Shown here: positions 46,771 through 56,651 of the stretch, in pieces
Numbering within the stretch: position 1 is the first letter of the stretch
How the letters are laid out: each line of letters opens with the position of its first letter
Assembly: GCA_037189525.1 (NCBI GenBank)
Contig: JBBCJC010000011.1
Coordinates: forward strand, 1-64,000
Length of the DNA: 64,000 nucleotides
Source of the DNA: Gemmatimonadales bacterium
Lineage (GTDB): Bacteria; Gemmatimonadota; Gemmatimonadetes; Gemmatimonadales; GWC2-71-9
Direction: 5' to 3'
Program-made: the position numbers and the translations under genes
The notes under the pieces: model-generated
Told to the model about the DNA's origin: nothing
The model's database searches: none
The model's input: the letters and a program-made list of their open reading frames with translations, nothing else

Positions 46771-46797
46771 TGAAACATTTTGCAACGTCGGGTCGTA
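46771..46797 (+). promoter_or_regulatory. ECF sigma (SigW-like) promoter of the psp operon
   Basis: TGAAAC-N17-CGTA, 38 nt before ATG 46836. Confidence 0.6.
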
Positions 46798-46835: not shown

Positions 46836-47129
46836 ATGGCCAACCCCGATATCGTCGTCCCGGTTTTCGGAATGATCACGGGCATCCTGACGACCGGGGC
46901 CCTCGCCTGGGGGATGGTCAGAGTGTTCCAGGGTCCGGTGGGGCAGGCCCTGGCACGGCGGATCCAGGGACGGGGCAGCGCGCCGGAGCCCGAGCTTCTC
47001 CATGAAATCGACGATCTGCGACTGCAGGTCGATCAGATGCAGCAGCGGCTGACCGAAGCCGAGGAACGGCTCGATTTCAGTGAACGGTTGCTGGCGCAGC
47101 GGTCGTCGGGGGAGAGCGGGCGGTTCTGA
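46836..47129 (+). CDS. Small TM + coiled-coil protein, paralog 1 (PspB-like architecture)
   Basis: TM, GPVGQALARRI, EAEERLDFSERLLAQ; alternative GTG start at 46818. Confidence 0.85.
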   Translation: MANPDIVVPVFGMITGILTTGALAWGMVRVFQGPVGQALARRIQGRGSAPEPELLHEIDDLRLQVDQMQQRLTEAEERLDFSERLLAQRSSGESGRF

Positions 47130-47172
47130 GGGCGGCCCACCGGACGGTGATGTCTCGAGGACGGGAGGAACG

Positions 47173-47433
47173 ATGGAAGGGATTCTGGCGATTCTGCTCA
47201 TCTTCGGCGGCGGTACGCTCGGCGTCTTGGCGTACAGTCCGATCGGGAAGGCCTTTGCGGCACGGATCCGGGGAGACCAGTTGCCGCCGGAAACCGATCC
47301 CGCGGTCCTGGAAGAACTCGATCGGGTCAGGCACGAATTGGCGGAGTTGGCGGAACGGGTAGATTTCGCGGAGCGCCTGCTTGCGAATCGGGGCGAAGCA
47401 CCGGTGTCGAGACTGCCGGAGGTGGGGTCATGA
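47173..47433 (+). CDS. Small TM + coiled-coil protein, paralog 2
   Basis: GGAGG RBS; TM, SPIGKAFAARI, ELAERVDFAERLLAN. Confidence 0.85.
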   Translation: MEGILAILLIFGGGTLGVLAYSPIGKAFAARIRGDQLPPETDPAVLEELDRVRHELAELAERVDFAERLLANRGEAPVSRLPEVGS

Positions 47434-47816
47434 TGCAGGTCGTCGTTCAGGTGCCGAATCCACCTCAGCCGCCGGACGTGTCGGTGATCGTGGCGCAGCC
47501 GCCTGACCTGCCGCCGTTTCCCCCGTTCCCGCCGGGCGGCCCGCCCGAGGCACTCATTATTGCGGGTGTCGTGATCGTCGGGATCATCGTCGCCGGCATC
47601 GTGTTCGGACCGTTGCTCCGGGCGTATGCCCGTCGGATCGAGGGCAAGGGCGCCGATGCGCAGCTTGCGACCGAGGTGGACCAGCTTCGGATCCGGGTAG
47701 CCGAGCTCGAGTCGGTGCAGCATCGGGTCGCCGAATTGGAAGAGCGGGTCGACTTCTCGGAACGCCTGTTGGCCCAGGGGCGTGAGTCCCAGTCGATCGG
47801 CCGGAATCCGGGTTGA
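47430..47816 (+). CDS. Small TM + coiled-coil protein, paralog 3 (Pro-rich N-terminus)
   Basis: ATGA overlap; TM, GPLLRAYARRI, ELEERVDFSERLLAQ. Confidence 0.85.
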   Translation: MMQVVVQVPNPPQPPDVSVIVAQPPDLPPFPPFPPGGPPEALIIAGVVIVGIIVAGIVFGPLLRAYARRIEGKGADAQLATEVDQLRIRVAELESVQHRVAELEERVDFSERLLAQGRESQSIGRNPG

Positions 47817-47818
47817 GT

Positions 47819-48214
47819 ATGTCCTGGTTCCGTAAGCATTTCGGGATGGACGCGATCGATCTCGCCATCCATGCGGTGATGACCGGCACGGTGGCGGCTT
47901 TCGTGGCCGAACTGTTCCGTGGTCCGGCCGACGATGCGATGATCGCGGCCGTGTTGGCCGGATCGCTCGCGGTCTTCTCCTGGCGGCGGCACCGCGGTCT
48001 TGCCAAGCTGGCGCGGACCCCCGAGGGGCTCACCACGGGGCAGATGGCTGCCGCCCGGCTGGAAGAGTTGGAGCAGCGGGTTGCCGATCTCGAAGCGGCG
48101 GAAGCCCGCGTCCTGGAGCTGGAAGAGCGGCTCGACTTTACCGAGCGCCTCCTGGCCCGGACAGCCGACCAGGCGGCCATCGCTCCGGTCGCACGCGGAG
48201 ATCACCATGGGTGA
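47819..48214 (+). CDS. Small 2-TM + coiled-coil protein, paralog 4
   Basis: Two hydrophobic segments, GLTTGQMAAAR, ELEERLDFTERLLAR. Confidence 0.85.
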   Translation: MSWFRKHFGMDAIDLAIHAVMTGTVAAFVAELFRGPADDAMIAAVLAGSLAVFSWRRHRGLAKLARTPEGLTTGQMAAARLEELEQRVADLEAAEARVLELEERLDFTERLLARTADQAAIAPVARGDHHG

Positions 48215-48479
48215 GCTGGGCTTTTTCGCCTTGTTCGGCGCGATTGCGGCCATCGGGGCATCGCTCTTTCTCGGTCCGATCGGGCAGGCCATCGCGCGCC
48301 GGATCGCGGGTACCCCGCCCAAGGGCCGGGACGGACTCTCCACCGGCGAGATGGCCGCCGAGCGGGTTGCTGGGCTGGAGGCGAGAGTGGTCGAGCTGGA
48401 GGAGCGCCTCGACTTCACGGAGCGGTTGCTGGCGCAGGGTAACGGCGAGCCGTCGGCCTTACCCGACCGGACGCCCTGA
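48207..48479 (+). CDS. Small TM + coiled-coil protein, paralog 5
   Basis: GGAG RBS; TM, GPIGQAIARRI, GLSTGEMAAER, ELEERLDFTERLLAQ. Confidence 0.85.
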   Translation: MGELGFFALFGAIAAIGASLFLGPIGQAIARRIAGTPPKGRDGLSTGEMAAERVAGLEARVVELEERLDFTERLLAQGNGEPSALPDRTP

Positions 48480-48536
48480 ATTCGGCCAAACGCAGTACAT
48501 TTCTCGCCTCGGTATCGGGGCGGAGGAGGACGGCGC

Positions 48537-48932
48537 ATGGTAACAAAGGACGATCTGCAGACGTTTCTCGACCGGGTCGACGGCGGGGCCGTCGAGGTCC
48601 GGGAGGTCGAGTCCGGACTCTGGCTGGTCCGCACGCAGCAAGGGGCTGAGGTCGTGGTCCACTACTCGCCGCCGGTGGTGATCCTCCGGTTGCGCGTGAT
48701 GGAAGAGCCGGCCGCGGTCGAGCGGCGGAGCGAGCTCTTCCGGCAGTTGCTCGAGCTCAATGCCCGTGACCTGGTCCACGGATCCTACGGGCTCGAGGGT
48801 GATCACATCGTGCTCACCGACACACTGGAGCTCGAGAACCTCGACTATTCGGAGTTCGAGGCGAGCTTCGACTCGCTCACCTTGGCCCTGTCATCGCATC
48901 TGGGCGCTCTGGCGCCGTACCGCGAAAGGTAA
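48537..48932 (+). CDS. CesT/YbjN-like (type III chaperone fold) protein
   Basis: Acidic 131-aa protein; LFRQLLELNARDLVHGSYGL, LENLDYSEF; GGAGG RBS. Confidence 0.8.
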   Translation: MVTKDDLQTFLDRVDGGAVEVREVESGLWLVRTQQGAEVVVHYSPPVVILRLRVMEEPAAVERRSELFRQLLELNARDLVHGSYGLEGDHIVLTDTLELENLDYSEFEASFDSLTLALSSHLGALAPYRER

Positions 48933-48939
48933 GCCGCGA

Positions 48940-49698
48940 ATGGGTATCTTCGAACGTTTTTCGACCATGCTGCGGTCGAACATCAACGACCTCATCAGTC
49001 GGGCCGAGAACCCCGAGAAGATGTTGAATCAGTTGATTCTCGACATGAAGACGCAGCTGGCCAAAGCCAAGCAGGAAGCGGCGGGCGCCATCGCGGACGA
49101 AAAGAAGCTGCAGGCCGACGCCGAAGGGCTCAAGAAGCAGGCGGAGGACTGGGAGCGGCGCGCCATGCTGGCCGTGCAGGAGGGCCGGGACGACCTCGCC
49201 AAGCAGGCGCTGATGCGCTACAACGAGGCCCTGCAAGGTGCGCAGCAGCTGCACGAGACCTGGGCCAAGCACCGCGCCGATACCGAGAACCTGAAGCTCC
49301 AGCTCCGCCAGCTCCACGATAAGATCGAGGAAGCCAAGCGGAAGAAGAACATCCTGGTCGCCCGGGCCAAGCGCGCCGAAGCGCAGCAGCGGATCCAGCA
49401 GACCATGTCGGGGATGTCGGACAAGAGCGCGTTCGAGTCCTTCGATCGGATGGCCGAGAAGATCGAGTCGATCGAGCGGAAGGCGCTCGCGGCCGCCGAA
49501 CTGCAGCAGGAGTTCGAGGGCGACGACCTGACCCAGCAGTTCAAGCAGCTCGAGTACCATGGCTCGTCCGATCAGCAGTTGATCGAACTCAAAGCCAAGA
49601 TGGGACTGCTCAAGGGCGGCAGCGACGAGGCCAAGAAGCTCGGCCGGGGCGAGGCCGTGGTGGATGATCCGGAAGTTCTGGAGGATGATGGCCGATAG
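48940..49698 (+). CDS. pspA: PspA/IM30 (bacterial ESCRT-III) protein
   Basis: MGIFERF..LRSNINDLISRAENPEKML, GRDDLAKQAL, AFESFDRMAEKI, LKAKMG. Confidence 0.94.
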   Translation: MGIFERFSTMLRSNINDLISRAENPEKMLNQLILDMKTQLAKAKQEAAGAIADEKKLQADAEGLKKQAEDWERRAMLAVQEGRDDLAKQALMRYNEALQGAQQLHETWAKHRADTENLKLQLRQLHDKIEEAKRKKNILVARAKRAEAQQRIQQTMSGMSDKSAFESFDRMAEKIESIERKALAAAELQQEFEGDDLTQQFKQLEYHGSSDQQLIELKAKMGLLKGGSDEAKKLGRGEAVVDDPEVLEDDGR

Positions 49699-49712: not shown

Positions 49713-49750
49713 AAAATGCAATGAGGGCCATTCGGCCCTCGTTGCATTTT
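49713..49750. terminator. Intrinsic terminator after pspA
   Basis: AAAATGCAATGAGGGCC-ATTC-GGCCCTCGTTGCATTTT. Confidence 0.85.
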
Positions 49751-49766
49751 GTCATCGGCGACCGCC

Positions 49767-49805
49767 TTGACCGCCGCAGGTTATCGAATACAGTTCTGTA
49801 TACGA
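49767..49805 (+). promoter_or_regulatory. Promoter with overlapping palindromic operator
   Basis: TTGACC-N16-TACAGT overlapped by TCGAATACAG-TT-CTGTATACGA (1 mismatch). Confidence 0.6.
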
Positions 49806-49865
49806 ATGAGGCCCGAGCCGGAGATTCCGGCCCGGCAGCCCCCGTTCTAAACCCGTGACCTATAT

Positions 49866-50939
49866 ATGGATACCCCCCGCTACCTGATCATTGCCGACGG
49901 CAACTTCCACCCCCTGGAATCGAAGACCGCGAACTCCGTCATCCGGTACCATCCGTCGCGGGTCGTCGCCGTGCTCGATCGGCGGACGGCAGGGAAAACC
50001 GTTCAGGACGTGCTGGGGTTCGGTGGCGCGACGCCGATCGTCGGATCGATCGAGGAGGGCCTGGCCTTCAAGCCGACGGCCGTGATGATCGGTATCGCCC
50101 CTGCCGGCGGCCGGTTGCCGGACGAGTGGAAGGGCTGGCTGACCAAGTCGCTCGATGCGGGGGCCGATCTGGTCAGCGGGTTGCACACGTTCCTCTCCGA
50201 TGATCCCGACCTTGCCGCGCAGGCCAAGCGGCTCAGCCGGTCCATCTACGACGCCCGGAAGGCCCCGGCCAACCTGCCGATTGCGGCGGGCGAAGCGCGG
50301 CTGGTCGATCCGTTCGTGGTCCTGACTGTCGGGACGGACTGCAACGTCGGCAAGATGACGGCGCAGCTCCAGCTGGTCGAAGGCCTCAAGGCGCGCGGGT
50401 TGCGGACCCGGTTCGTCGCGACCGGGCAGACCGGCATCTTCATCGAGGGGTGGGGCACGGCGGTCGACGCCGTGATCGCCGACTTCATCGCGGGTGCGGC
50501 CGAGGATCTGGTGCTCCAGGGCGCCAAGGACGCGGACATCGTGCTGGTCGAAGGCCAGGGCAGCATCAATCACCCAGGCTACTCGGGCGTCACGGTCGGC
50601 TTGCTGCACGGGTCCTGCCCCGATGCCTTGATCCTCTGCCACCAGGCGACCCGGAGCCACATCGGCGAGTATCGGACGACGCCGTGGCTCAAGATCCCGC
50701 CTCTGTCCCGCTATGTCGAGCTCTACGAGATGCTCGGCTCGGCGGTGCATCCGACCAAGGTGGTGGGTATCTGCCTCAACACCTACGATCTCAACGAGGC
50801 GGATGCGATCAAGGCGTGCCAGGCTGCCGCCGCCGAAACGGGGCTGCCGGCAACCGACCCGGTCCGGTTCGATGCGGCGCCGCTGCTCAACGCCTTGGTG
50901 CGCGAGCGGGAGAACTATCTGGAGCGTCGGGCGCGGTAA
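49866..50939 (+). CDS. DUF1611 family (DgcN-like) P-loop protein
   Basis: GIAPAGG, SGLH, VGTDCNVGKM, ATGQTGI, DFIAGA, VEGQGS. Confidence 0.88.
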   Translation: MDTPRYLIIADGNFHPLESKTANSVIRYHPSRVVAVLDRRTAGKTVQDVLGFGGATPIVGSIEEGLAFKPTAVMIGIAPAGGRLPDEWKGWLTKSLDAGADLVSGLHTFLSDDPDLAAQAKRLSRSIYDARKAPANLPIAAGEARLVDPFVVLTVGTDCNVGKMTAQLQLVEGLKARGLRTRFVATGQTGIFIEGWGTAVDAVIADFIAGAAEDLVLQGAKDADIVLVEGQGSINHPGYSGVTVGLLHGSCPDALILCHQATRSHIGEYRTTPWLKIPPLSRYVELYEMLGSAVHPTKVVGICLNTYDLNEADAIKACQAAAAETGLPATDPVRFDAAPLLNALVRERENYLERRAR

Positions 50940-51019: not shown

Positions 51020-52924
51020 TCAGGCCGGCTGGTCGAAGATTGTACGTACCTTGCGAACCAGCAGTTCGAGTGAATACGGCTTGAGCAGAAAAGGATGCCC
51101 GCCGAGGTCCGCTTCGTCGAGATCAGCAGCTCCGGAGGTGAGCAGGGTGCGAACGCTGGAATAGCGGGTGCGGAGCTGCGCCAGGAGGTCCCGGCCATCG
51201 CCGTCGGGCAGGTGCAGATCCGCGATGACGAGATCCGGAGGTTTCCGCATTTCGCCGGCCAGCTGGAGCGCCTCGGCGACACTGGCCGCCACCGCGACCT
51301 CGTATCCGTTGGCGGTCAACATGGCGTTGCCGACGGCGCGCACCTGCGGCTGGTCTTCCACCAGGAGGATGGTCTCGGTCCCGCGAGCACCCGTTGCGTC
51401 GCTGCCCGCGCCAGGCGTTTCCTGGGTTTCCTGCGCACGTGGCAAATAGACGTGAAAGGTGGAGCCCTCTCCCAGCGTCGAATCGACCGTGATCACGCCC
51501 TGGAATCGTTCGATGATTCCGTGACAGGTGGCCAGGCCGAGTCCGGTGCCCGTGCCCCGGGGTTTGGTGGTGAAAAACGGCTCGAACATCCGGGCTCGCA
51601 CATCGTCGGGAATACCGGTGCCGGTGTCCGTCACCGAGATCCGGACCCAGTCGCCACTGGCCAGCGCGGCGGCGGTACCGGGACGGCCGTTCGGAACATT
51701 GCTGGTGGTAATGGTGACGGCGCCGCCGCTCGGCATGGCGTCGCGGGCGTTGACGACCAGGTTGGTGAGCACCTGTTCGAGCTGACCCCGGTCGGCCACC
51801 GTGGCCCAAAGGTCGGTTGCCAGTGCGGTGCCGCACTTGACGGTGCTGCCCACCAGACGGCTGAGCAGCCGCTCCAGGTCGGCCACCATGCGGTTCAGGT
51901 CGAGCTCGGTTGGTTCGGACGGCTGCCGTCGCGCAAACGACAGCAACTGTCGGGTCAACGCTGCGCCCCGATTGGCGGTGGCGGCGATACTCTCGAACAC
52001 GGGGCGGACTGCCAGGGGAAGATCCGGCTCGCTCAGGCCGGTTTCCGCTTCGGCCAGCATGACGGCGAGCAGATTATTGAAGTCGTGGGCGACACCACCG
52101 GCCAGACGTCCCAGGGCGTCGAGTCGCTGGGCGTCCTGGAGCTGGGTTTCCAGGCGGCGGCGCGCGGTCGTGTCTTCGTACATTGCGACGAGCGCCCCCG
52201 GCGTTTCCGGATGGTCGGTCAGACGCGCCGCACTGAGCCGCAGATCGATGATCGCACCGTCCGGCCGGCGATACTGCAGGTCGATGCCGGTCAGTTGACG
52301 GCCGCGCAAGACTCCGTCGAGGAGCAGGTGGGCCGGGCCCTCGATTGCATGATCCAGCGGCGGCATCGGCTGACCGATGACCTGGGAGGCGGGTACGCCG
52401 AAGACCTGCTCGGCGGCGCCGTTCCAGAGTCGGACCGTCAGGTCGTCGTTCAAGACGGCAATCGGGAGCGGCGAGGCGTCGAACACGGCGCTCAGCAGGC
52501 GCTGGGTCCGGTGGAGTTCATCGCGCGCCTGGCGCAGACGCCACCGCCCCTCGGCCGTGCGTAAGGTGCGCACGAGCAGGTCGGGGTCCACCGGCTTGAG
52601 CAGGTAGTCGCACTCCTCCTCCCGCAGGGCACGGATGGCGCTTTCCAGCGTCCCGTTACCGGTCAGGATGACCACCTGCATTTCCCCCGAGTAGGCGTGC
52701 AATCGCACCGCCAGATCCAGCCCGTCCATGTCCGGCAGCCGGAGGTCGACCACGGCCACCGGCGGGGTGTGTCGCGCTTCCTGGGCAAGGGCCAGCGCCT
52801 CGCCACCGGTCTGCGCCGTGAGCGGCGCAAAGCCATGCAGGGGGAGGATGTCCTCCAGGGTCCGGGTCAGGATCTCGTCGTCGTCGACGACCAGGACCGG
52901 AACGTGATCAGCGTCGGTCAGCAT
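51020..52924 (-). CDS. Hybrid histidine kinase (REC-PAS-HisKA-HATPase-REC)
   Basis: [46 protein letters not shown]. Confidence 0.93.
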
Positions 52925-53633
52925 TGAGCACGTCCAGCAGACGGTCGATGGGGAGCGGTTTGGTAAAGGCGGCGTCGATCAGGCCTTCCGGCGTTTCCTC
53001 GACGGTTCGGTAGAGGTCATCCGGGTGGCCGCTGTAGAGAATCAGGAGCACCGACGGATTGACTTCGCGGATCGCGAGGATGCATGCCTTCGGATCGATG
53101 TGGTTGAGCCGAAGGTCCAGGAGGACCGCGGTTGGCCGATCGGCCGCCATGCGGGAGACGGCTTCGTTCAAGGTGCGCGCCTTGACGGGCGACAGCCCCT
53201 GCGTCGTGAGGAGCTCGCACAGGGTGTCGAGGAACTCGGGCTGGTCATCGACGACCAGGACCGAGCGGGCATCGCCGCGGGCCGCCTCCAGATAGGTGAG
53301 CAGCGCCGGGAGATCGACCGGCTTGCGCAGAACCTGCAGCACGCCCGCCGTCTCCGCCTCGGCGATCAGTTCTTGCGCTGCAAACGCGGTCATCAGCACC
53401 ACCCGGGTCCCCGGGCGGTCCTTCTTGATGGCCTGGAGCGCTTCGACGCCATTGAGGCGGGGCATCCGAACGTCCATCAGGACGACATCGACGGACTGTT
53501 CGTGCGCCAGACGGACGGCGTCCTCGCCGTCGAAGGCCCGATAGGTTACCCAGCCGTTCAGTTCGAGGATATCGCAGAGCGTCTCGACCATGCCGCGGTC
53601 ATCATCGACGACGAGGATCTGTTTGGTAGTCAT
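52908..53633 (-). CDS. Dual receiver-domain protein without an output domain
   Basis: Two REC units, each with DD, phospho-Asp, T/S and KP. Confidence 0.9.
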   Translation of the reverse strand: MTTKQILVVDDDRGMVETLCDILELNGWVTYRAFDGEDAVRLAHEQSVDVVLMDVRMPRLNGVEALQAIKKDRPGTRVVLMTAFAAQELIAEAETAGVLQVLRKPVDLPALLTYLEAARGDARSVLVVDDQPEFLDTLCELLTTQGLSPVKARTLNEAVSRMAADRPTAVLLDLRLNHIDPKACILAIREVNPSVLLILYSGHPDDLYRTVEETPEGLIDAAFTKPLPIDRLLDVLNADRR

Positions 53634-55387
53634 GAGGAGGCAATCGGTACGTGCAGCGTAAACGTCGTCCCGCGCCCGAGCGTGGACTCGAAGGAGAGGT
53701 CTCCGTTGTTGGCTCGGGCCAGGCTTCGGGAGACGGCGAGCCCGAGGCCGATGCCTCGGGCTTTGGTGGTAAACAGCGGCTCGAAGATGCGGTCGCGATT
53801 CTCGTCGGTGATCCCGCTTCCGGTGTCCGTGACATCGATGGCCAATCGGTCACCGTCGAGCCGCGTCCGTATCGTCATGGTGCCCCCGTCCGGTTCCATG
53901 GCTTGGACGGCATTGCTCAGGAGATTGATGACGATCTGGCCGATCTGCACCGAGTCGACGAACATGGCTGGAGGGCCGCCGAACTCCTTCACCACCGCGA
54001 CGGATTTCGGGGTTGCGACCCGTCCCATGGCCTCGTCGATAAAGGGGCCAACGGCAACCGTGCTGCGCTGAGGGGGCTTGATCCGGGCGTAGTCGAGGAG
54101 GTCCGAGACGATCTTCTCCGAGACGCGGATCTGGCCGCGGATGATGCCCAGGTACTCGCGGACTTTGGGTGGTGCGTCCCGCTGAGTGGCTTCGAGGTAG
54201 TAGACCGCGTTGGTCATCACACCCAACGGGTTGCGTAACTCGTGGCCAACGCTGCTGGAGAGCTGGCCTAACGTGGCGAGCCGTTCCTTTCGGATCAGGT
54301 CCTTTTGAGCGGCTTCCAGTTGGGTGAGCGCCTCGGACAGCTGATTGGTTCGGGTCGCCACCTGGCTTTCCAGGGTCTCGATTCCGGCTCGGACCTGATC
54401 AGTCATCGATGCGAACGACCGGGCCAGGATGCCGATTTCGTCCCGACGCCCGGTTGCCAGGACCGAGAGCGAGAAGGTGTTGCCGCTGGCAATTGCCTCG
54501 GTGGCATGCGTGAGCGACTCCAGCGGCTGGGTGATGGTCCGGCCGACCCACCAGGCGAGTGCGGCGCCCAGTGCAACGACGATGAGACCGATTCCGAGGA
54601 ATGTCTGCGTGAGCGTTCGGGCGGGAGCCAAGGCCTGATCAGCGGGCATCTCCACCGAGACGACCAACGGTAGCCCGGGGAACTGTTCGCTTGCTGCGAT
54701 CCGGTGTGCTCCCTCTCGATCGTACTCGCGTCCGCCCGAGGTCGGTGGGGGACGATCGACCACTCGCCTCATATCGGTCCAGACGGTTCCATCGAGGTTG
54801 CCGAAAAGCAGGACGGCGTCGGGACCGATCAGATTGGTGAGTTGGGCAATGGCCGTCGCGGCCGCGACGAGGCGGTGCGTCTGGACCACATGACCGAGTG
54901 TGGCTCCTCCGATCCGTACCGGTGCGCTGACTTCGAAAAAAACGGTGTCGCTCGCAACGAAGAGCGGGCCAACGGCTGCCGTATCGGCTCGGGAATACGG
55001 CGCCGGCGGCGCGGACGCTCCCGCTTCTGCCACGACGGCGCCGCTGGCGTCCCGCAGGCTGATGGAGGCCAGCGGGTTGTTGGCCGGAAGCAGCTCCTGC
55101 AGGATGCCGGCGACCCCAGCGGTCTGGGATGGCGTCTGGAGTGCGGCAATCACGGCCGCATTCTCCGCGCCCCGGACGAGACGGGTGCGGGCGGTGAGGA
55201 AGCCGGGGTTGGCCATCTGGACGAACTGCTGAGCGACCGACTGCAGGCGCGCGACGGCCGCTTCTTTGGCGCTTCGGCGCACGACCTGATAGGCCACGAC
55301 ACCGAACGCGAGCACGACGAGCAACAACATCGCCACCATGGCAGCGATGAATCGAAGTCGTAACGAAATGTACCGAGGTTCGCTCAT
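53630..55387 (-). CDS. Membrane sensor histidine kinase with HAMP
   Basis: 2 TM, DEIGILARSF, GHELRNP, NLLSNA, DTGSG, FTTK..GIGLGL. Confidence 0.93.
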   Translation of the reverse strand: MSEPRYISLRLRFIAAMVAMLLLVVLAFGVVAYQVVRRSAKEAAVARLQSVAQQFVQMANPGFLTARTRLVRGAENAAVIAALQTPSQTAGVAGILQELLPANNPLASISLRDASGAVVAEAGASAPPAPYSRADTAAVGPLFVASDTVFFEVSAPVRIGGATLGHVVQTHRLVAAATAIAQLTNLIGPDAVLLFGNLDGTVWTDMRRVVDRPPPTSGGREYDREGAHRIAASEQFPGLPLVVSVEMPADQALAPARTLTQTFLGIGLIVVALGAALAWWVGRTITQPLESLTHATEAIASGNTFSLSVLATGRRDEIGILARSFASMTDQVRAGIETLESQVATRTNQLSEALTQLEAAQKDLIRKERLATLGQLSSSVGHELRNPLGVMTNAVYYLEATQRDAPPKVREYLGIIRGQIRVSEKIVSDLLDYARIKPPQRSTVAVGPFIDEAMGRVATPKSVAVVKEFGGPPAMFVDSVQIGQIVINLLSNAVQAMEPDGGTMTIRTRLDGDRLAIDVTDTGSGITDENRDRIFEPLFTTKARGIGLGLAVSRSLARANNGDLSFESTLGRGTTFTLHVPIASS

Positions 55388-55502
55388 ACGGAGACCTCCG
55401 TTATTCCAACGGTCCGGACCGCGTGGCGCGTCCCGAACCTAACGACGTTGACGTGATCCCGTCACCGGGTGGATCGAATCGACTCCGTCATCGATCGGTC
55501 GA

Positions 55503-56651
55503 TCATACCGAACTCGCGATCGTCGTCACGTAAATGGCACCGGCTATCGGCAGATTGGCCCAGTAATTCTCGATCCGGGTCACCAGTCCTTCGGTCGCTT
55601 CCTGGCCACGGGCAATCAGCAGCTGGCCGTCGGCTGTTCGAACATCACTCACGAAAATCATGCCCGGTTGGACGGCGGTGAGCGCGACCTCTCGAACCGG
55701 CGCCGCATCCGACTTGGGCTCGTGAAGGGCACGGAGTCGTGTCAGCAAGTCCGGGTCGTATCGTCCGGCGTGGCTGGCGAGGCGGCGGAGCGCATCGTCG
55801 GGTTCCACCCCGGCCGTGAGCAGGTCATCGAAGGCAAACGCGAGCGTCAGAAGCCGGGCGCCGAGGGGAATGTCCACTGCGCCAGGCTGGTTGGGCGCCC
55901 CGACGGGAAGGCCGATCCCGAGCAGGATTGCGCGCACGGACTCGAGGCGCGGAATGTTCGCGATGATCCGCGCGGCGACATGCGGGACCTCAGCGACGGC
56001 CTCGCTCTCCTGCGCGGTCAGGCCCGCGCCCGTTGCCAGCTTGTCGACGACCGATGGCGCCAGCGAGATGGTCCCGATCTGAGACACCATCGCCGCCACG
56101 TCCACTGCCCACCAGTTCGAGATCTCGAGATCGCCGGCGATCCGATGAGCCAGTCGTTTGACCCGCCCGGCACGTCCGAATGCGCCCGGCTGGGAAATCG
56201 CGAGGATGTCGACCAACGCGGCAACGCTGCCGTGTAAGGTCCGCTCGAGGAGGACCCGTTCGCCGACCACCAGGTCGTGCTGGACGCGCGCCGCATCCAA
56301 TGCCGCGATCAGAACCTCCGACGCGCACGGCTTTTCCAGGAAGCGGAAGATGCTGCCTTCGTTGACGGCATCGATCGCCGCCGACAGATCGGCCTGCCCG
56401 GTGAGCAGGATGCGAACGGCGTCCGGCTGCATGGTCCGGATGGCGCGGAGCAGCGCCACACCGTTCATGCCCGGCATGTTGTAGTCGGACACCACGATCG
56501 TGAACTGACGCTCGGCGGCGAGCGCAACCGCCTGATTCCCGTGCTCGGCGCTGACGACCTCGAAGCGCCGGTGCAGCATGCGCGTCACCGCCTCCAGCAG
56601 CCGCGGATCGTCGTCGACGATCAGGATCGGAGGACGCCCGGCGACGGTCAT
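55503..56651 (-). CDS. Response regulator with degenerate HD-GYP-like domain
   Basis: Intact REC; SQIG in place of HDIG; IPLGAR, YDP. Confidence 0.85.
   Translation of the reverse strand: MTVAGRPPILIVDDDPRLLEAVTRMLHRRFEVVSAEHGNQAVALAAERQFTIVVSDYNMPGMNGVALLRAIRTMQPDAVRILLTGQADLSAAIDAVNEGSIFRFLEKPCASEVLIAALDAARVQHDLVVGERVLLERTLHGSVAALVDILAISQPGAFGRAGRVKRLAHRIAGDLEISNWWAVDVAAMVSQIGTISLAPSVVDKLATGAGLTAQESEAVAEVPHVAARIIANIPRLESVRAILLGIGLPVGAPNQPGAVDIPLGARLLTLAFAFDDLLTAGVEPDDALRRLASHAGRYDPDLLTRLRALHEPKSDAAPVREVALTAVQPGMIFVSDVRTADGQLLIARGQEATEGLVTRIENYWANLPIAGAIYVTTIASSV

Follow-up and report, generated by a model that had tools for sequence, protein, structure and literature searches.

PspB-like microproteins arrayed upstream of pspA in a predicted ECF-sigma operon: an apparently undescribed Psp variant in Gemmatimonadota

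Introduction

The question raised by the locus described here is what five small, predicted membrane proteins encoded directly upstream of pspA are for, and whether they belong to the Psp (phage shock protein) system at all. The locus occupies positions 46836 to 49698 of a 64,000-nt stretch of DNA, called the window below, which is the forward strand of contig JBBCJC010000011.1, positions 1 to 64,000 (assembly GCA_037189525.1, Gemmatimonadales bacterium). The original prediction, made from the letters alone, saw in it a non-canonical Psp module, in which five sensors with one conserved docking tail recruit PspA under different membrane insults, either directly or through a chaperone. We find that the array is part of a real, lineage-wide variant of the Psp system, as seen in its sequence, its linkage to pspA, its promoter motif and the loss of the chaperone in relatives. 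The variant is conserved and apparently undescribed: a PspB-like array in a predicted operon of the extracytoplasmic function (ECF) sigma type together with pspA, without PspC or PspF.

Results

Layout of the locus

Seven genes follow one another on the + strand: five microprotein open reading frames (ORFs; 46836-48479) of 97, 86, 128, 131 and 90 aa, a chaperone ORF of 131 aa, and pspA of 252 aa. The intergenic gaps are 43, -4, 2, -8, 57 and 7 nt, the chaperone gene ending 7 nt before pspA, and the G+C content at third codon positions is 0.73-0.88 in the seven genes. The features are as follows.

46771..46797, + strand: predicted ECF-sigma (SigW-type) promoter, TGAAAC, 17-nt spacer opening with a T-tract, CGTA; called on the basis of the motif
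46836..47129, + strand: microprotein 1, 97 aa; predicted transmembrane (TM) helix, GP..ARRI helix, coiled coil and conserved tail; modelled with AlphaFold 2 (AF2)
47173..47433, + strand: microprotein 2, 86 aa; core subtype with IFGGG within the TM segment, in 39 of 41 array loci
47430..47816, + strand: microprotein 3, 128 aa; subtype whose N-terminus, ahead of the TM segment, is rich in proline; top match of the genome to the PspB profile
47819..48214, + strand: microprotein 4, 131 aa; subtype having a pair of hydrophobic segments, the first of them with D-x-x-D-x-x-x-H
48207..48479, + strand: microprotein 5, 90 aa; predicted TM helix, coiled coil and conserved tail
48537..48932, + strand: CesT/Tir-like (YbjN-fold) chaperone gene, PF22550; optional in relatives
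48940..49698, + strand: pspA (PF04012), sole copy found in the genome
49713..49750, no strand assigned: 17-bp terminator-like hairpin closing the operon, A/T runs on both sides

All five microproteins carry the tail motif E-x-x-ER[LV]DF[SAT]ERLLA, with a brief C-terminal stretch of variable sequence after it, while [GS]P-x-x-x-A-x-A-x-RI is found in four and GL[TS]TG[QE]MAA in two of them, exactly as the original prediction had claimed. The tail motif occurs five times in total in the six frames of the window; a relaxed form occurs eight times in the six frames of the genome (7.2 million residues) and in none of five shuffles. Pairwise identity among the five microproteins is 30-50%, and we therefore regard them as old paralogs. 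The predicted chaperone and pspA genes were found after the array, the former matching PF22550 (CesT_Tir_1) at E 1.9e-24 with 86.5 bits against a cut-off of 27, the latter matching PF04012. The closing hairpin, also predicted, was confirmed, with a stem of 17 bp, -41.5 kcal/mol and a z of -8.1; the terminator scan called it on the minus strand only.

The genome is 98% complete; one pspA and one PF22550 chaperone gene were found in it, and pspC (PF04024) had no match. No sigma-54 activator domain was found on the contig, only two receiver-domain matches, and there was no -24/-12 (sigma-54) motif upstream of the array. That pspC and pspF are missing from the neighbourhood had been noted earlier, and for pspC this extends to the whole genome.

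Linkage to pspA across Gemmatimonadota

The linkage was surveyed from both sides. From the pspA side, 121 genomes of the phylum were sampled and 80 loci were fetched; from the microprotein side, 79 loci were retained from the best 80 of 428 confirmed stretches, a sample that does not delimit the outer range of the family. The two samples may overlap, and related genomes are not independent of each other. In f1, the family of the window, all 39 fetched main pspA loci (from 39 of the 55 sampled f1 genomes) carried 2-11 same-strand tail genes directly upstream of cesT or pspA, and the single f3 locus falls within this range too. A second, divergent pspA locus of one genome gave no tail gene match. 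When anchored on the microproteins, pspA lay downstream in 67 of the 79 loci, eight loci reached a contig edge and four were unlinked singletons. The retained loci were titled Gemmatimonadota or a subgroup in 78 cases and "uncultured bacterium" in one, the best being 60-67% identical to ORF1, and the largest array had 14 copies, both figures applying to the best 80 of 428. The tail is thus linked to pspA in other genomes as well, as the original prediction required. Within arrays the genes are tightly packed, with gaps of at most 30 nt in 149 of 171 cases.

The companions of the array are less constant. Of the 39 f1 loci, 19 had cesT, 29 had dgcN and 10 had dpp4, against 39 for the array itself, so that the link between array and pspA is tighter than local synteny. 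Eight loci of f5, f6 and f8 carried one divergent homolog directly before cesT-pspA (HH probability 97.8%), and the 31 fetched loci without an adjacent homolog comprised 21 of f2, nine of f4/f7 and one of f11. Of 65 other genomes, 40 had homologs; among the 18 from f9-f12, where pspA was mostly absent too, only one did. The PspA proteins of array-bearing loci formed one clade in a quick tree (SH-aLRT, a likelihood-ratio branch support, of 96), and by that tree the adjacency of array and pspA outlasted at least four losses of cesT; it also outlasted the loss of both flanking genes. The clade and the distribution of homologs together fit one ancestral gene that expanded in f1 and f3 and that f2 and f7 lost from their operon.

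Promoter and regulation

The sequence TGAAAC-N17-CGTA at 46771-46797 stands ahead of the first array gene. The SigW-type promoter consensus includes a T-tract after the -35 element (PMC5758882), and pspA of Bacillus subtilis is under SigW control (PMC8581546). Among 41 array loci, 30 had the pattern GA[AC]AC-N16-18-CGTA no more than 250 nt upstream of their first gene, as compared with 75 of 6518 background windows (1.2%). It was also found in all eight loci with a single homolog and, before cesT or pspA, in 18 of the 31 loci without one. The motif marks the start of the operon with or without the array, hence the array would lie within the pspA transcript; array, chaperone and pspA are likely co-transcribed from the conserved promoter, which favours the single transcript implied by the original prediction. 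Metatranscriptomes yielded one dataset (share 0.08) with short contigs only, among them a 404-nt piece that covers the end of pspA; it had no bearing on co-transcription. Since a SigW-type motif precedes them, the array genes look like outputs of an ECF-sigma operon and not like sensors of the PspF type. The role of sensor, in the sense known for PspB and PspC, is therefore doubtful, as the array lies downstream of an ECF-type promoter and has no linked pspF.

Strict promoter sites numbered 20 in the genome, where about nine were expected. At L203:1332-2592 one of them separates a sigma gene from the anti-sigma-like gene that comes after it, and so stands upstream of the latter; other strict sites lie ahead of what look like genes for small membrane proteins, transporters or proteases. 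The best NCBIfam match of this sigma gene was SigW with 153 bits, under the 209-bit cut-off and in a comparison made for this gene alone. In some arrays lacking the chaperone (L054, L064, L067, L069, L070, L082) there is a second GAAAC/CGTA motif just before the last array gene or pspA. Nine apparent sites at 420-480 nt upstream of some arrays turned out to be conserved codons of the upstream gene, which we take to be uvrA-like, and were excluded from the count.

The CesT-like chaperone

The AF2 model of ORF6 has a mean predicted local distance difference test (pLDDT) of 92, and its fold matches are type III chaperones and YbjN, including SicP and BacA of Pseudomonas aeruginosa. BacA is itself a chaperone-fold protein encoded before a pspA homolog (PMC10948618). 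Seen from the microprotein side, the chaperone gene stands between array and pspA in 59 of the 67 pspA-linked loci. In f1, however, 20 of the 39 loci are without it, and PF22550 was found nowhere in those 20 genomes by the same family search that finds the gene of our genome. The tail columns are alike with and without cesT, and so is copy number (mean 5.5 vs 4.9). The chaperone is thus not an obligatory bridge between array and PspA, for it is missing in 20 of 39 genomes while the tail is unchanged; recruitment through the chaperone, which had been suggested as one of two routes, does not stand as a rule. In two genomes (G043:C1:1267544-1267723 and G120:C3:1435073-1435258) a short family member without the tail lies between the last full copy and cesT.

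The microprotein family

None of the five microproteins had a curated match in Pfam or NCBIfam, no viral relative was found in the search, and for the homologs of the single-copy subtype there was no Pfam family among the 120 matches listed. A profile of 129 members matched 4,094 clusters (50% identity) at E<=0.001; family clusters are hypothetical or unlabelled in their sources, one of the ten examined being labelled PilO. A hydrophobic window was predicted in 199 of 204 members, and lysine and arginine were richer after it than before it in 177 of those 199, so that an N-terminal TM anchor is predicted which leaves the C-terminus inside. In ORF4 the single hydrophobic segment is replaced by two weaker ones. 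The D-x-x-D-x-x-x-H in the first segment of this two-segment subtype (window 47819-47990 and ten array members) is a possible ion- or proton-sensitive site.

In the AF2 model of microprotein 1 (pLDDT 93, predicted template modelling score 0.48) there are helices at 4-32, 34-47 and 52-94; a fold search with this model returned nothing at E<=0.001. Hydrophobic heptad positions in the column profile are -13, -10, -6, -3, +1, +4 and +8, and together with the helix 52-94 they point to a predicted cytoplasmic helical domain of the leucine-zipper type. The most conserved tail residues are E-1, R0, D+2, F+3, E+5 and R+6, which by our reading of the profile lie mostly outside the heptad core.

The N-terminal parts are diverse and old. 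After exclusion of 11 of 212 proteins as doubtful or out of range, the start codons of relatives being chosen by script, the best match of an N-terminal part was in another genome, in some cases a congeneric one, for 189 of 201 proteins, in the same genome for seven and nowhere for five. The subtype of ORF2 was present in 39 of 41 loci, further subtypes occurred in 6-22 genomes each, and 35 were singletons. Tail identity is 54% within genomes as compared with 51% between genomes. One conserved tail over old, diverged N-termini is what the original prediction had described. We reject the idea that the arrays stem mainly from recent duplication or gene conversion.

Similarity to PspB and PspC

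The commonest NCBIfam match of the family was TIGR02976 (PspB), with 37 of 129 members at E<=0.1 and a best value of 2e-5; PF06667 matched 5 of 129 at the same threshold. In the window the matches to TIGR02976 were weak, E 0.006 for ORF3 (16.9 bits) and E 0.1 for ORF5. Forty genomes were searched and 36 had a match; the best one of the whole genome fell in the array in 20 of the 36, and some match lay within the array in 29. In the reverse direction, Escherichia coli PspB took eleventh place (E 0.18) in a ranking of 50,632 six-frame segments, directly after the ten genes of the family, and PspC ranked 31st. The nearest Atlas clusters having a common Pfam family carried PspB on 45% and 32% of their members (one source). 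The PspC domain (PF04024) was over its cut-off in six of 40 array-bearing relatives, mostly in short ORFs and never on the pspA contig. Matches to pspB were also seen in 453 plasmid records, chiefly from Klebsiella and Enterobacter.

Family members away from pspA

The unlinked family members of our genome number five: two singletons, a further one between genes that are presumably bshC-like and murJ-like, a TM2-fused member and a member that ends a 261-aa ORF. Across the class a single divergent homolog (L008:1423-1701; L181, L182, L187, L201, L202, L216, L220, L221) keeps a fixed context, downstream of what we take to be a bshC-like gene and often ahead of a murJ-like one. Behind a TM2 domain (PF05154, E 3e-19) the tail occurs in our genome (L009:1198-1611) and in three relatives (L217, L218, L222), an architecture that resembles a PspC domain plus zipper. 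Family f2 has one or two homologs whose tail consensus differs, directly before a gene for an activator with a receiver (REC) domain and sigma-54 interaction (L180, L188, L191, L195, L196, L197, L227-L229); where visible, they are preceded by a kinase-like gene, and the orthologous pair of our genome has no insert. Triplets away from pspA, each with a GAAAC/CGTA motif of its own, were found at L210:3225-4474 and L224:3247-4279. At L006:1471-1803 and in L184 a family gene directly follows a gene which we assume to be padR-like, and in our genome ABC-transporter-like genes come after it.

Flanking genes

A DUF1611/DgcN-like gene lies at 49767-50939, after the hairpin, with a sigma-70-like site and a TACAG-TT-CTGTA palindrome, and 29 of 39 relatives have this gene at most 3 kb downstream of pspA. 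Two-component genes at 51020-56651 are on the strand opposite to the array.

Discussion

The reading that we place at an even balance of belief and doubt is that the locus is one envelope-stress operon, in which the five PspB-like microproteins serve as docking partners through which PspA reaches the inner membrane. Under membrane stress a SigW-like ECF sigma factor would be released and would transcribe array, chaperone and pspA in one message, from 46771-46797 to the hairpin at 49713-49750. The microproteins are predicted to insert with the C-terminal coiled coil in the cytoplasm and to oligomerise through the heptad core. The conserved E, R, D, F, E and R residues may then form a shared patch that binds PspA and replaces the PspC leucine zipper, while the old, conserved differences in the TM and N-terminal parts may place the paralogs at different membrane sites or with different partners. 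Soluble PspA would be held or tuned by the chaperone, which is dispensable. A complex prediction with PspA 1-225 and residues 30-92 of microprotein 1, both entered as alignments and run with no control folds, gave scores of 0.24 and 0.00, the mark being 0.32, and carries no weight in either direction.

Several observations weigh against this reading or against its PspB component, and they are gathered here. Five of the ten family members of our genome are located away from pspA, relatives also hold unlinked singletons, pairs and triplets, and it is chiefly on account of these members that docking to PspA is given no stronger wording. The 21 loci of f2 and the nine of f4/f7 have pspA, mostly with cesT, and no neighbouring homolog, and 11 of the 41 array loci, one of them truncated by the contig, are without the upstream motif. 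The apparent invariance of the tail is inflated, because the tail served as the search key. The curated cut-off of the PspB profile (51.7 bits) was exceeded in none of the 40 genomes, the best score being 28.3 bits, and the same profile matched 4 of 14 control genomes at E<=0.1. The family profile had no match on the E. coli chromosome at E<=1, and hhalign gave a probability of only 11% against an E. coli-like PspB profile that was shallow, its building having yielded almost solely close enterobacterial sequences. The PspB alignment also sits one heptad upstream of the invariant tail, which is thus without a counterpart in PspB. In E. coli the PspC C-terminal zipper binds PspA, and PspB alone showed no PspA binding in two-hybrid tests (PMC3068692). 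On the other hand, the C-terminal region of PspC has been described as a divergent PspB domain to which PspC is fused (Ravi et al. 2024, PMC11237479). Taken together, the family is not filed as PspB; it is PspB-like, far under the curated cut-off, and remote homology to PspB is probable. The likeness to PspB that the original prediction suggested is supported by the ranking of PspB among profile and sequence matches, and not by the hhalign result or the cut-off.

A different account, in our estimate somewhat unlikely though to be taken seriously, is that the microproteins guard the membrane themselves as homo- or hetero-oligomers held by the tail, and are found with pspA only through a shared ECF regulon. 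The unlinked triplets with their own promoter motif (L210, L224) would suit such proteins, as would the fact that half of the family members of the genome are unlinked. The tail resembles R-h-x-x-h-E, a trimer motif, and Pfam Trimer_CC weakly matches 6 of 129 members. E. coli PspB self-associates (PMC3068692), and Yersinia PspBC protects cells without PspA (PMC9239133). Yet the adjacency to pspA has survived the cesT losses and the loss of both flanking genes, and conservation of the tail is concentrated, as we read it, outside the heptad core. It is improbable that the microproteins are instead small regulators of another membrane protein, be it a kinase, an anti-sigma factor or a protease, with feedback and with the tail docking that protein. 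The position of the f2 homologs between kinase-like and REC/sigma-54 activator genes speaks for it, and so do the fusion of the tail to TM2 in our genome and three relatives and the members following genes that we presume to be padR-like; but the orthologous kinase-regulator pair of our genome has no insert, the f2 homologs carry a different tail consensus, and the large arrays precede pspA and not a regulator.

That the tail binds the CesT-like chaperone, which then bridges to PspA, appears very improbable. The chaperone does stand between array and pspA here and in most loci seen from the microprotein side, its fold is one that binds peptides, and binding between BacA and BacB is mentioned as unpublished (PMC10948618); the 20 genomes with an array and without PF22550, in which tail profile and copy number are like those of the others, argue the contrary. 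Hardly credible, finally, is an array that is the neutral product of repeated duplication in which a single copy matters. Copy number does vary from 2 to 14, one subtype is near-universal, 35 N-termini are singletons and tail-less remnants occur in two genomes; still, several subtypes recur in 6-22 genomes, only seven of 201 N-termini match best within their own genome, and tail identity hardly differs within and between genomes. An extension of the docking reading, which we offer as a speculation and think rather doubtful, is that the array would constitute a combinatorial adaptor code for a bacterial ESCRT-III, with one shared PspA-docking tail and varied membrane segments addressing PspA to many kinds of damage or to many complexes.

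How does the locus compare with known systems? With PspB systems it has in common a small protein with an N-terminal TM segment and a C-terminal coiled coil, several copies in a pspA operon and a weak two-way profile similarity. It differs from them in that the family is far under the cut-off, the invariant tail lies beyond the part aligned with PspB, the array stands upstream of pspA with up to 14 copies, pspC and pspF are not linked, and an ECF-type motif is found in place of a sigma-54 one. In Erythrobacter litoralis an operon of PspA, PspB and PspC+PspB followed by five more PspB genes has been described, and so has a CesT/Tir-PspA dyad (Ravi et al. 2024, PMC11237479). The epithet non-canonical is accordingly correct, although a PspB array next to pspA and the dyad were both known before. 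The dyad is shared in that a PF22550 chaperone-fold gene directly precedes pspA here; the described groups, in contrast, also contain band-7/flotillin, AAA+, spermidine-synthase-like or ATP-grasp genes, a PspB-like array next to the dyad is absent from the PspB and CesT rows seen in the supplement, and here the chaperone is lost in 20 of 39 genomes. The pspA-ydjGHI operon of B. subtilis (SigW) is alike in its TGAAAC/CGTA-type ECF promoter and in co-expressed membrane proteins that recruit a PspA homolog, and unlike in that no band-7 or TPM match was obtained among our operon products. LiaI, which recruits LiaH (PMC7619361), is likewise a co-expressed membrane protein recruiting a PspA homolog; here, however, there are many paralogous anchors and not one, and LiaI-LiaF-TM was matched by none of the five ORFs in Pfam or NCBIfam, nor is it one of the 25 families that the 129 members match most often. 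The string "Gemmat" is absent from the accessible text and supplement of Ravi et al. (PMC11237479) and from that of Popp et al. 2022 (PMC9239133), and none of the papers listed in a literature search, at one point the top 25 of 177, describes this microprotein-pspA array; the online tables of both surveys lay outside that search.

Targeting of ESCRT-III of the PspA type is known only from a few models, namely PspBC, LiaI and YdjGHI. Members of this large bacterial lineage have a single pspA, mostly lack pspC and carry small anchors in varying number that share one tail, which makes the lineage a compact test of whether a short motif nucleates PspA, and it provides natural experiments in which the chaperone is present or absent and anchors number none, one or many. 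The docking reading would also name a function class for about 4,100 clusters, most of which are labelled hypothetical. If the adaptor code exists, the tail fused to TM2 and to other anchors would extend the address book of PspA, in parallel to the many adaptors of eukaryotic ESCRT-III.

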